The notes: generated by a model from the letters alone, not told the origin. Numbered from the whole stretch's first letter, positions 283-59,300 are shown. The stretch: 63,962 bases of DNA, filler included, from Reclinomonas americana ATCC 50394 (GCA_048213135.1; 7 parts of 3 records of this genome joined end to end with filler, not necessarily neighbours in it); one strand, 5' to 3'. A program made the numbers and translations.

Positions 283-1918
283 CTATTCTCCGTCTCCAAG
301 CCGTTCTACTACGGCATCCTTCGCGGCCTGGGCTTGTGGGTGCCGGAGACGACACGTGTGCGCCTCTTCCTCTTCCTCACCCTGTTCCTGCTGATCTTTG
401 CGTGCTCCGGCAACATTGTCGGCATTATTCTCTTCAAGGAGAAGCAGTTTGAGAAGGTGAAGATGGGGCGTGCGCCAGTTCTCTGCGTGTACCTTGCTTC
501 TCACACCACCTTTGAGCAGTTTTACAACATTGTTCGTGTGGCATTCTTGTTTGCGTCGGTCTTTTTCGCCATCACGTATCTGCGTTGCGTTGGGGGGATT
601 CTGCGGTTCGTATGCGTGTCTCCTTGTCGTCTCATCGCTCATTTGCATGCCCAGCCTCGAAGAACTGGCGACGACTGATGCAGGAGGCGGTCTATTCCGG
701 TGCGTCGTCGTCCTTCAGCTTGCCTTCCCCTGACCTTGTGCTCACTTCTGCCTCTGCAGACATTGTAAAGACTCGAAGGCACCTCAACGCGTCTGTTATT
801 CTCGCCGTCGTGCTGCTGATCTTTGCTGTCGCCATTGACATGCCGGTGTGGATCTCGTACATGGAGGAGGAGGACATTTCCACGGTGTGGCTGGTGTGGC
901 TGACCATTACCGGGTGCGTTGTTCACGAGAACGCCTCTCTTTCCATCTGTTCCCATCATCGCTAACTCTCATTCCACTTGCCAGCCTCTTCTTCCACGTC
1001 TACATGGTGCGAAACGTCCTGCCACTGTTCTTGGATTTCTCTTTTTCCCCCTCCGCTCACCTTGCCGCTTGTCGCAGTCTGCTGGATCGGCCATTTTTGT
1101 GGCAGTGTGTCTGCTCAAAGTCCTCGAGTGGGACAAGATGAATGAGCGCATCGCCAAGCGGTCGGAGCATGAGTCTGAGGTGCGAGGAAAGAACGAGCTC
1201 CTGTCCCCCTCATATGCTGATCTCCTATACAGAAAACCATGATGGAACACAGTGCGCGCACTGCTGCGCTCAGTGACACCAACAAGAGGGTGGAGGTGTA
1301 TCTGGCTCTCAACTTTGTAGCCTCACTATCGCTCCTGGTCGTTGGTGCGTGTGGGAGAGAGAGCGACGAGAGGGGAAGAAACCTCACTGTCGTTTATTGC
1401 AGAGGTCTACGGCCTGGTGAGCGACTCGGCAAGTCATTTTGTGTGGTCCATGCGTTTTGCCCACACGCTGACGTTGACGATGCTGCCACTGTTGCGTGCA
1501 CCCCATCCGTCGCATCGACCGTCGTCAAGAACTCATCTTTTCTTGTCTCCCGCGAAAACAGGCTGGCCGCAGGCTATGTCACCGCGCGAGCCTCCAAGGT
1601 CAGTGCGTCATAGTGCTGTTCCGGGAGATACAGTATGCGCTCACTCTCTACTGCAGGGCCGCAAGATGATTGCCCGCATGCGTGCGCACGCCGAGACCGA
1701 GGACGGTCGGAAAGGCCTGCAAGACCTGCTGGTCTACTATATTGCCACCGACGCTGCCTTGCGTTTGGTACGTGTGGCCTCACATCACACTGCTCCCCAT
1801 CCTCCCCCTCACCCTCCCCGCACAGTTTGGCATGCGAATGGACTCGAGCTTCATCGCCAAGGTCGTGGTCATTGGATTCACCATCATCACATTTGTTTTG
1901 GCTCGTGCCTCTTCATGA
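283..1918 (+). CDS. Seven-transmembrane gustatory-receptor-like / DUF3537-like protein (7TM ion-channel superfamily), 5' end outside window
   Basis: Exons 283-456, 520-583, 655-699, 760-913, 985-1006, 1078-1179, 1233-1344, 1403-1490, 1562-1598, 1657-1767, 1826-1918 splice (all GT-AG) into one open 333-aa frame with 7 hydrophobic segments, N-terminal YYGILRGLGLW and C-terminal LQDLLVYYIATDAALRLFGMRMDSSFIAKVVVIGFTIITFVL. Confidence 0.75.
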
Positions 1919-1953
1919 AATCACCTTAATGCAAAGTCGCTGTCGCGGCTACC

Positions 1954-56300: not shown

Positions 56301-59300
56301 TGGCACACGGGTCATGAGATCCGCTTCGTGGGTCTCTCCACGGCGCTGGCCAACGCGGTCGATTTGGCCGAGTGGCTCGGCATTCCGCGCCAGGGTCTCT
56401 TCAACTTCAAGCCCTCTGTGCGCCCGGTGCCTGTGGATGTTGCGTTTGTGTCGCATTAACCTGCGTCTTTTTCCTGCTTGCTCACCTCACCTCCTTTTTT
56501 TTGCCACACCACAGGTCCACATTCAAGGCTTCCCCGGCCGCCAGTACTGCCCGCGCATGGCCACGATGAACAAACCGACGTACACGGCCATCATGACGCA
56601 CTCTCCCGAAAAGTCGGTGCTGGTGTTTGTGTCGTCGCGTCGCCAGACTCGCCTCACGGCCATGGTGCGTGGTGGGTGATGCCTGTGCGAGGAGGCGAAA
56701 ACGTTTGTTGACTGTCTGTACAGGATCTGATTGCGTTGGCCTCGCACGACGAGCGACCGCGTGCCTTCCTCCGCTGCGACGAGGAGGAGATTGCACTGAT
56801 TTCCGAATCGGTGCGTGGATGACTGTCTGTGTGTGTGTGTGTGTGTGTTATCTTCTCCACAATGCTCATGCCACCATCTGTGCACAGGTCAAGGACAGCA
56901 ACTTGAAACACACGCTGCTGTTTGGCGTCGGTCTGCATCATGCCGGTCTCAATGAGCACGACAAGACGGTGAGTTGATTGGTGAAGGGAGGCAGTGACAA
57001 GCAAATGGTCAAGAAGATAGCAGGAACAGCGAGAGTGTGTTAGAAAGGAAGTGATGAAGAGGTCGATGGAAGGAAAGAAAGAAAGAAAGAAAGTAAGCGA
57101 GAAAAAAAGCGAGAGAAAAGCGAGAGAAAGCATGATGGAAAGTGAGTGAGGGCACGAGTGAGAGAAAGAGTGAGACAAGAAAACGTGAGAAATATGATAA
57201 GGACTCAGCGGAAGAGTGAGCAAGAGAGCAAGAGAGAGAGAGAGAGAGTGACAATGTAGGAGGTTAGAAAAGCAGGAGAGCAGGCAGAAAGGAGACAGTC
57301 AACCTGGGGAGTCAGACGAACTGTTTATGCTCCACACACTCTGTTGTCCATTCTCACCCCCTTTCCCTTCCCCTCCCTCGCAGATCGTGGAGAACCTCTT
57401 CGCCGACAACAAGATCCAAGTGCTTGTATCCACCTCGACACTGGCGTGGGGTGTCAACTTGCCTGCCCATCTGGTGGTAGTCAAGGGCACCGAGTACTTT
57501 GATGCCAAGACGTCGCGCTACGTCGACTACCCCATCACCGACGTGCTGCAAATGATTGGTCGTGCTGGTCGTCCGCAATTCGACACCGAAGCCGTGGCCG
57601 TCGTGTGCGTGCACGAACCGAAGCGCGACTACTACAAGAAGTTCCTCTACGATCCGTTCCCGGTGGAGAGCAGTCTCGCCGAATTCATTCACAATCACAT
57701 CAACGCCGAAATCGTGGCCGGCACGCTCAAGAGGTTAATTTTATTGTGTGTGTGCGAAGACCGTGTCGTCCTCCTTTTATCAACATTGTTGTTGTTGTTG
57801 TTGTGTGCGTGCAGCCGCCAAGACACGCTCGATTACATGACGTGGACGTATCTGTACCGGAGACTGCTGCAGAACCCGTCGTACTACGGGCTGGAGGACT
57901 CGTCGTTTGAGGCTGTGGAGGACTACTTGTGTTCGTTGATTGACCGCGTGTTGAAGGATCTCGCACGCGCGCAATGTGTCGGTGAGGCTTGCTTGTTAGA
58001 AAGAATCACACGCGCTGCTTGCTTGGTTCCTCATTCCTTCTCCCCCCTCGTGGCCAGACATTTCCGAGGACGAGAGTCTCGAATCGACCACGCTCGGCAA
58101 GTTGGCCGCCTACTACTACCTGGACTACAAGTCGGCGCGTCTCTACGCCGACCGTCTGCTGCCGATGTCGTCGCTGGAGGAGATTCTGGATACGCTGTGC
58201 GAATCCACCGAGTACGACGAGTTGCCGGTGCGCCACAACGAGGACAAGCTGAACATGGAGCTGAATGCGACTGTTGCGTGCACATTGTGGCGATCAGTAG
58301 TGTGTGTATGTTCTCATCGGTACTCTCCTGCAGGTGCCGCATCCGCTCAGCCGACGTGCCTTCGACTCGCCACACACCAAGACGCATCTGCTGTTGCAGG
58401 CGCACTTTTCGCGACTGCCTGTGCCGATTGCCGATTACATCTCCGACACCAAGTCGGTGTTGGATCAGTCGATTCGTTTGGTGCAAGCCATGGTCGATGT
58501 GGCGGCCGATCGTGGCCTCCTGAGCGTCGGTGCGTGTGTCATACAACGACTGTTCATTGCTGCAGACTAACGTGGTGTGTGGGCCGCAGCGCTGCGCATC
58601 ATGTCGATCATGCAAATGATCATGCAAGGCCGCTGGGTCACCGACTCACCGCTGCTGATGTTGCCACACGTCACGCAGCACACCATCGAAGTACTCTTTG
58701 AGAATGTGAGTCTGCGACTTTTGCTGGCGAGTCCGTCGCTCTGCCACTCACACGCGCTTGCATCCGGACAGAATGTGGAGGTGGTGCAACAGCTGCTGGC
58801 GCTGCCGCGCAACGACCGCTACGCCCTGCTGCGTGCCGCGCACGCCGAAGACGAGATTGTCGACGTGCGTTTCCCCCCTTGCCCCTCCATCTCCTTCGCC
58901 TCAACTGATTTCTTTATTGGTTGCAGATCGAGGCCGCGCTGGAACACATGCCAATCATCGACGTGCGACCGATGCTGTCCGTGCCACACGCGCAGCCGGG
59001 ACACACCGTGTCGGTCACTGTCGACCTTCATCGCCGCAGTCGCGCCTTCGGACGCTCCTACGCCCCGCGCTACCCGAAGAACAAGGAGGAGATGTGGTGG
59101 TTGGCGGTCGGCACCGACCTGTCGGACATGCAGGGACCTGGCACACTGTTTGCCCTCCGCCGCATCTCGTTCCGCGAGCACACCCAGGCCAAGTTGTCGT
59201 TCGAGGCGCCATCGCAACTCGGCCGCCAGCGACTGGCCGTGTACCTCATTTCCGACACGTATCTCGGCTTTGATCAGGTGCGTGAGTGAGAGAGCAGGCG

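Follow-up and report, generated by a model that had tools for sequence, protein, structure and literature searches.

A putative second class of 5' splice sites, GTT[G/A/T]CG, is frequent in genes of a Reclinomonas americana genome window

A stretch of 63,962 nucleotides (nt) of DNA from Reclinomonas americana ATCC 50394 (GCA_048213135.1), hereafter the window, raises the question of whether the hexamer GTT[G/A/T]CG serves as a regular intron start and, if so, in which register it is read. The window has a composition of ∼57% G+C and numerous N gaps, and its genes are eukaryotic and intron-rich, with introns of ∼60 nt. Standard donors in these genes read G^GTGCGT or G^GTGAGT (the caret marks the cut). 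By contrast, an initial annotation had listed 19 sites with GTT[G/A/T]CG as intron starts, none of them with a G as the last exon base (position −1). The hexamer is indeed present at all 19 positions on the listed strands, and G occupies −1 in none of them. Here, we present sequence evidence that GTT[G/A/T]CG(T) represents a genuine and frequent second class of U2-type GT-AG donors in genes of the window.

To place introns in an ASCC3-type helicase gene and a beta-amylase gene, we used a local spliced protein-to-DNA aligner that accepts any GT, or GC at a penalty, together with any AG and that has no other splice-site knowledge. Queries were 42 ASCC3 homologs, each of >1850 amino acids, and 58 beta-amylase homologs of at least 400 amino acids among 150 relatives listed from a HMMER search in which a single exon served as query. 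We took as verified those introns that did not overlap and that had at least 20/42 votes (ASCC3) or at least 13/58 votes (beta-amylase), which gave a set of 40 introns; one intron at 52651 (15 votes) and the 3'-terminal introns at 58706, 58865 and 59278 (4 to 7 votes each) lay below the threshold and were left out. Among the 40 verified introns, 11 start with a hexamer of the GTT[G/A/T]CG class, five with another GTT and 24 with GTG, GTA or GTC, while none uses a GC donor. All 11 homology-placed class introns have GT..AG ends and restore the reading frame on removal, as expected of U2-type GT-AG introns. Forbidding a class donor cost the alignment 0 to 31 half-bits, and the usual fallback was a GC donor 3 nt downstream, which adds one residue.

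In addition, we used an ab initio semi-Markov gene finder that draws its codon usage and acceptor matrix from the verified genes and gives all GT dinucleotides equal scores. This finder recovered 24 of the 28 well-supported ASCC3 introns and 8 of the 12 beta-amylase introns, a recovery that is not independent because these are the training genes, and it predicts two class introns in the first gene of the window (584 and 1491). The class makes up 11/40 homology-supported introns, or 13/49 once the introns modelled ab initio in the first gene are counted in; the initial annotation had given 13 of 58 introns in three genes. The broader claim that all 19 sites are intron starts holds up in part: 11 are supported by homology, two by ab initio prediction and three by paralogs, while three on the minus strand (4565, 15037 and 44996) are unsupported (Table 1).

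Two further observations concern how specifically the hexamer is associated with donors. First, in the three plus-strand gene spans it accounts for 16 of 843 sense GT dinucleotides, yet for 13 of ∼49 donors; 13 of the 16 sense-strand hexamers are donors. Second, as a control for aligner bias, a single query was aligned to 80 unrelated metagenome ASCC3 loci (best identity 82%, no close relative). In these loci, a class hexamer was chosen in 3/439 introns, compared to 6/31 with the same query in the window. Seven of these 31 window introns match some metagenome ASCC3 locus in position and phase, and no class intron is among the seven.

Table 1. Introns, donor motifs and genes discussed in the text (positions in the window; exon bases in lowercase; votes are homologs supporting the donor; costs are those of forbidding the donor)
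Feature	Position	Strand	Exon end	Donor or motif	Phase	Length (nt)	Support or remark
Class intron	53713..53775	+	t	GTTGCGTG	2	63	41/42 ASCC3 homologs; cost 1-9 half-bits
Class intron	53958..54020	+	a	GTTGCGAC	1	63	42/42 ASCC3 homologs; cost 17 half-bits
Probable class intron	54771..54832	+	a	GTTGCGCG	2	62	27/42 ASCC3 homologs
Class intron	56199..56273	+	c	GTTGCGTC	0	75	41/42 ASCC3 homologs; cost 9 half-bits
Class intron	56439..56514	+	t	GTTGCGTT	0	76	40/42 ASCC3 homologs; cost 9 half-bits
Class intron	58273..58333	+	t	GTTGCGTG	0	61	32/42 ASCC3 homologs, 30 with acceptor 58333
Class intron	27065..27127	+	c	GTTGCGCT	1	63	13/58 beta-amylase homologs; 2 take 27091; most alignments end short of the exon
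Class intron	27682..27753	+	a	GTTACGTC	2	72	43/58 beta-amylase homologs; 8 take 27676, 3 take 27700
Class intron	28046..28107	+	c	GTTGCGTC	1	62	57/58 beta-amylase homologs; acceptor TATAG
Class intron	28213..28286	+	c	GTTGCGTT	1	74	33/58 beta-amylase homologs; cost 15 half-bits
Class intron	28312..28375	+	a	GTTTCGTA	2	64	37/58 beta-amylase homologs; cost 21-31 half-bits
Predicted class intron, first gene	584..654	+	c	GTTGCGTT		71	Ab initio finder, uniform GT scoring
Predicted class intron, first gene	1491..1561	+	t	GTTGCGTG		71	Ab initio finder, uniform GT scoring
Additional predicted class intron, calpain-like gene	30707..30767	-	t	GTTGCGTC		61	Ab initio finder, uniform donors; absent from the initial annotation
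Likely class intron, copy 1 of duplicated gene	5356..5425	-	c	GTTTCGTC	2	70	Paralog comparison
Likely class intron, copy 2 of duplicated gene	7573..7680	-	c	GTTTCGTG	2	108	Paralog comparison
Likely class intron, diverged paralog of the gene at 4.4-6.4 kilobases (kb)	16398..16467	-	c	GTTGCGTT	2	70	Protein paralogy
Unsupported motif	4559..4565	-		GTTGCGT			Directly after in-frame TGA used as a gene end by the ab initio model
Unsupported motif	15031..15037	-		GTTGCGC			Paralog-homologous frame hits a stop 14 codons upstream; in no gene model
Unsupported motif	44990..44996	-		GTTGCGT			Open reading frame with weak Rgp1 match reads through; in no gene model
Other GTT donor, G at −1	54900..54957	+	cag	GTTTGCAG			42/42 ASCC3 homologs; canonical-register type, G at +5
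Other GTT donor, G at −1	57734..57814	+	gag	GTTAATTT			41/42 ASCC3 homologs
Other GTT donor, G at −1	51411..51478	+	atg	GTTTGAGC			25/42 ASCC3 homologs
Other GTT donor, G at −1	28434..28499	+	gag	GTTGGTTG			32/58 beta-amylase homologs
Other GTT donor, G at −1	28710..28777	+	tcg	GTTTGTCA			26/58 beta-amylase homologs
ASCC3-type helicase gene, part resolved by homology	51411..59351	+					Pfam on exon open reading frames; named ASCC3 homologs; spliced alignments of 42 homologs
Beta-amylase (GH14) gene, 12 supported introns	26705..28962	+					PF01373 on exon open reading frames; 58 aligned homologs
First gene ("7TM gene" of the initial annotation)	283-2688	+					Ab initio model

Apart from their donors, the class introns closely resemble the other introns. 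Their median length is 63 nt compared to 64 nt for the others, and their G+C content is 0.535 compared to 0.531. NCAG acceptors, mostly CGCAG, TGCAG or CACAG, end 38/40 verified introns. In the last 45 nt of the 40 introns, the commonest 5-mer is CTCAC (14/40; background 8.9%), followed by CTCAT (10); CTCAC is present in the tails of 6/11 class introns and 6/24 of the others. This CTCA[CT] motif lies 12 to 28 nt from the acceptor and is common to class and other introns, and the branch-like motif of these genes seems to be CTCA[CT] rather than CTRAY. The class thus shares acceptor, branch-like motif and length with the other introns, which implies that the same machinery acts on both. Two other origins were considered and rejected. 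The donor consensus of U12-type introns is [AG]TATCCTT, whereas class donors read GTT[G/A/T]CG. A family of introners does not fit the interior sequences, the mean local alignment score being 8.25 within the class, 8.02 between class and other introns, 7.46 among the others and 6.82 for shuffled sequences.

The class differs from the other donors at the exon border. In the verified set, G occupies −1 in 0/11 class donors, in 5/5 other GTT donors and in 20/24 GTG/GTA/GTC donors (class versus all others, 0/11 versus 25/29, Fisher p=5.9e-7; class versus other GTT donors, p=2.3e-4). Inside the intron, the class has C at +5 and G at +6 in 11/11 donors and T, C or A at +7 in 8, 2 and 1 donors, respectively, similarly to +6 of standard sites. 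The five other GTT donors read GTTTGA, GTTTGC, GTTAAT, GTTGGT and GTTTGT; four of the five have G at +5, and none has CG at +5/+6. All five had been missed by the initial annotation (51411, 54900, 57734, 28434 and 28710). Its counts of −1G in 26/29 other ASCC3 donors and 8/8 other donors of the first gene were checked in part and compare with 21/22 well-supported non-class ASCC3 donors and 5/7 donors in the first gene as modelled ab initio. Among the standard donors that lack −1G, three of four (54577, 26933 and 28572, all on the plus strand) read C^GTGCGT followed by CTC or TTC; this suggests that a perfect intronic core can compensate for a missing exon G.

The stronger statement that class donors "exclude" −1G survives as a contrast with other donors and not as an exclusion beyond the general rarity of GGTT in the window. 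Counted over both strands, a G stands before 14.1% of GTT (n=1369), 11.1% of GTTG and 10.5% of GTTGC in the whole window, and 5/97 class hexamers have a G at −1; at a background of 10.5%, the probability of 0/19 sites with −1G is 0.12. Observed/expected ratios on both strands are 0.43 for GGTT, 0.24 for GGTA, 0.58 for GGTC and 1.31 for GGTG. The rarity of GGT followed by a base other than G may reflect avoidance of cryptic donors or plain composition bias. Because GGTT is rare, arguments from a missing G before GTT are weakened.

Four split codons speak to the exact position of the cut. At 53958, the split codon AAT (N) agrees with N in 41/42 homologs, while CAC (H) agrees with H in 13/13 homologs at 27065, in 31/33 at 28213 and in 35/37 at 28312. 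Since these codons restore N, H, H and H at four invariant residues, the cut is placed before the G of GTT. A cut in the standard register, G^TTGCGT, accompanied by a one-base displacement of the 3' cut, would instead yield S, R, R and Q, respectively, and is rejected.

Aligned with the standard donors, the class reads as G[G/T]TGCGT with the cut before the first GT; this heptamer had been proposed in the initial annotation, and the four split codons agree with it. We suggest that U1, or whatever first reads the 5' splice site, binds class donors in a register shifted by +1. The core TGCGT of the standard donor would then sit one base further from the cut; G−1 and G+5, which pair with C9 and C4 of U1, would be replaced by G+1 and G+6 at unchanged spacing; the cut would fall on the sole available GU, which lies one base 5' of the standard register; and the later U6 contact would have to tolerate one extra nucleotide. 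Several lines of evidence are consistent with this proposal. First, G+1 and G+6 are found in place of G−1 and G+5, together with no preference for −1G, and the reappearance of these guanines at equal spacing is as a one-base register shift predicts. Second, the split codons at 53958, 27065, 28213 and 28312 place the cut at the GU, a single base ahead of the proposed U1 register. Third, complementarity to U1 rises from a mean of 3.09 Watson-Crick pairs in the canonical register to 5.09 in the +1 register; with the U at +3 bulged, the mean is 4.91, and standard sites in the canonical register have 6.0. In these counts, U1 is represented by the conserved motif of its 5' end, as given in the available text of PMC4856993 and PMC9311317, rather than by the U1 of this organism. 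Sequence comparison shows the junctions, their frequency, the exact cut and the lost preference for −1G; a +1-shifted U1 register is the interpretation that fits them best, and we regard the chances that this register explains the class donors as evenly balanced.

In the alternative that survives best, the usual pairs of G+1 with C8 and of a single U with A7 are kept, the remaining U (+2 or +3) loops out, and GCGU pairs like positions +3 to +6 of standard sites. By number of Watson-Crick pairs, 4.9 versus 5.1, this bulged register is as good as the shifted one, and one-nucleotide bulges at +2/+3 are among the registers described for human sites (54-68 predicted sites; available part of PMC4856993). 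However, C9 would stay free, and selection for −1G would be expected as in standard sites (25/29), while −1G is seen in none of the 11 verified or 19 claimed class sites and a −1 pair is available in 0/11. Moreover, the five GTT donors with −1G all lack CG at +5/+6. Because C9 is taken by G+1 in the shift and free in the bulge, the missing −1G preference separates the two registers, albeit weakly, whereas pair counts do not. We consider the bulged register unlikely as the explanation.

A second alternative places the change in the RNA: a second U1 small nuclear RNA (snRNA), e.g., changed at position 8, or a U1 5' end that co-evolved with GUGCGU would read the class by full complementarity. The 5' end of U1 is very conserved among eukaryotes, which argues against such a change. 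On the other hand, canonical U1 pairs poorly with the class and moderately with GUGCGU, where a mismatch lies at +4, and snRNA changes were raised by Irimia and Roy for the Ostreococcus GTGCGTG consensus (available text of PMC2483917). An Rfam scan of the window found no snRNA gene at the gathering threshold or at E<=1; its matches at E<=1 were low-complexity sequence near 48 kb and one match at 40.8 kb. A variant snRNA appears rather improbable to us.

A third alternative is that the junctions are misplaced, with GTT as an artefact of forcing GT-AG ends and the true donor being a GC three bases downstream (GTT^GCG...) or a nearby GT. The next-best GC donor costs just 1 to 17 half-bits, of which 4 are the GC penalty and 5 would be one gap, and 54771 has a credible GT rival. 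Nevertheless, the GC choice would add one residue at each of the sites, within motifs that align well; no GC alternative exists for GTTACG (27682) or GTTTCG (28312); GCGTNN is unlike the donor consensus; and the invariant N and H residues are reproduced by the split codons, in a gene set in which GC donors are absent. Such misplacement is highly improbable. Least credible, and already very unlikely, is that GTTGCG is merely common and the aligner falls on it: although the window holds 97 class hexamers on both strands and GGTT is rare throughout, both the scarcity of the hexamer among sense GT dinucleotides relative to its share of donors and the 80 control loci contradict this.

Several observations weigh against a class of donors read in a shifted register. 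The lack of −1G does not exceed what the 10.5% background predicts, i.e., a preference is lost and there is no positive signature of a shift. The duplex energy with canonical U1 is close to nil for class donors in any register (mean −0.9 kcal/mol compared to −6.6 kcal/mol for standard sites); these weak energies may mean that the U1 of this organism differs or that proteins contribute. The bulged register matches the shifted one in pairs. The junction at 54771 is ambiguous: rival donors at 54780 (t^GTGATTCG, three additional residues) and 54778 are taken by 13/42 and 2/42 homologs, respectively, and the ab initio finder takes 54780. Three of the 19 claimed sites are those without support, and the ab initio finder took 0/6 of the claimed minus-strand sites, either with uniform donors or with a donor bonus; its codon model, trained on ASCC3 and beta-amylase, fits the minus-strand genes poorly. 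Finally, the junctions rest on homology, paralogs and ab initio models, and the sample comprises three genes in one window. Balancing these points, we put forward as a tentative proposal, with the odds somewhat against it, that this organism routinely uncouples the register in which a 5' splice site is read from the site of the cut, such that about one quarter of introns are read one base out and cut at the upstream GU. A U1 whose 5' end has co-evolved with the GUGCGU core could take part in such uncoupling, together with a U6 contact that tolerates the extra nucleotide.

On the minus strand, paralogs point to three further class introns. The two gene copies with donors at 5425 and 7680 are ∼84% identical; their nucleotide similarity ends right after GTTTCGT and returns 5 nt before the acceptor. 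The intron lengths differ by 38 nt, and the stretch can therefore not be coding in both copies, and the exons on either side, read in the spliced frame, are homologous. The donor heptamer has been kept in both copies although the intron interiors diverged. An in-frame GT 12 nt upstream is a possible alternative at both sites, and the ab initio finder prefers it (5437 in copy 1). At 16467 (GTTGCGT), homologous peptides lie on both sides of the junction, and the phase is that of the gene at 4.4-6.4 kb. Downstream of the unsupported motif at 44996, no NCAG acceptor was found within 45 to 110 nt.

The window contains segmental duplications, namely 2694-3487 versus 13407-14200 (94%), 5274-6307 versus 7492-8569 (84%) and 6688-6899 versus 8614-8825 (95%), and the 4.4-6.4 kb region has a diverged paralog, detected at the protein level, at 15.0-17.2 kb on the minus strand; the gene family is of coiled-coil or low-complexity type. 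In copy 2 (7.5-8.7 kb), in-frame stops follow the shared intron, and this copy may be a pseudogene. A scan of 294 stop-to-stop open reading frames (ORFs) of the window against Pfam assigned no family to this paralog family or to the first gene. A calpain-like gene at 29084-32852 on the minus strand has weak Peptidase_C2 matches on two ORFs and seven sense-strand GTT[G/A/T]CG hexamers; the one at 29689 has a G at −1, and the ab initio model uses 30767 alone. Word-based protein searches gave no match for the calpain-like ORF or for a beta-amylase exon.

The ASCC3-type gene has two DEAD/Helicase_C/wHTH/Sec63 cassettes by Pfam, i.e., the double cassette of ASCC3/Brr2-type helicases, and owes its name to the homolog search. 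An ORF at 49097-49495 on the minus strand, between N gaps at 48819-49095 and 50171-50334, matches the N-terminal helicase PWI domain; in tblastn, the N-terminal part of ASCC3 homologs aligns in reverse at 49097-49495, and the remaining ASCC3 lies just downstream on the plus strand. Between the two gaps, the scaffold probably carries an inverted contig. The nearest named relatives of the beta-amylase are those of the chlorophytes Polytomella and Haematococcus. Taken with the GTGCGT donor core, these relatives would point, though weakly, to a green alga when judged from sequence alone. The beta-amylase gene is split by the gap at 27292-27391, one of six gaps of identical form (15522-15621, 27292-27391, 39350-39449, 47904-48003, 60422-60521 and 62738-62837), each consisting of 44 N, TTAATTAATTAA and 44 N and most of them adjoining microsatellites. 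The TTAATTAATTAA linker has stops in all frames and looks like an artificial contig joint rather than genome sequence. Other matches in the window are PPR repeats at 41800-42513 on the plus strand (E 1e-11), weak RhoGEF pieces on three ORFs at 60524-61705 on the plus strand and a weak Rgp1 match at 44962-45480 on the minus strand.

If the proposed register holds, this organism would offer a natural system whose splicing code makes standard use of a mode rare in humans. In such genomes, donor models built on a single weight matrix that expects G at −1 and +5 would overlook or misplace about one quarter of the introns, and the likely errors in gene prediction are frameshifts or one-codon insertions by way of the GC alternative. 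So far, studies of how the cleavage site is chosen under out-of-register U1 have relied on a few human sites. Natural sites by the hundreds or thousands in one genome would make statistics possible on positions −1, +7 and +8 and on alternative splicing, and would permit a comparison with U1, U6, U5 and the proofreading proteins of the 5' splice site in the same organism.

Among known systems, the standard donors described here share their atypical core with the GTGCGT(G) donors of Mamiellophyceae, whose consensus is AG^GTGCGT in Micromonas (PMC3879977) and GTGCGTG in Ostreococcus (PMC2483917), as given in the available text of these papers. By contrast, these genomes are intron-poor outside outlier regions, while ASCC3 of the window has ∼31 short introns in its resolved part, and the branch-like motif of the window is CTCA[CT] rather than CTGAC. 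The string "GTT" does not occur in the main text of either paper. A literature search by motif and register, limited in coverage and exclusive of the Micromonas supplements with their donor logos, found no description of such a donor class outside work on human sites.

In humans, noncanonical registers between the 5' splice site and U1 account, all validated ones together, for 1.5% of 201,541 sites, and the shifted register is proven for rare sites (available part of PMC4856993). These human shifted-register sites (Roca and Krainer 2009, as cited in the available parts of PMC4856993 and PMC9311317) are similar to the class in that the cut is made at the GU at +1/+2 with the U1 helix displaced by one, G is absent from −1 and +5, and complementarity reaches one base deeper into the intron. 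They differ in that the class represents 11/40 verified introns and has the core UGCGU, here read from sequence alone, instead of AAGU. The human sites with a bulge at +2/+3 (Roca et al. 2012; Tan et al. 2016, as given in PMC4856993, available part) share with the class the GUU start, the extra U and the possible number of pairs; however, this register predicts a −1G preference that the class lacks. Human sites of the GUUUGGU type, which use the canonical register by way of +4U/+5G (same part of PMC4856993), resemble the five other GTT donors of the window, with −1G in 5/5 and +5G in 4/5. These five donors thus provide an internal control that separates a GTT start as such from the shifted class.

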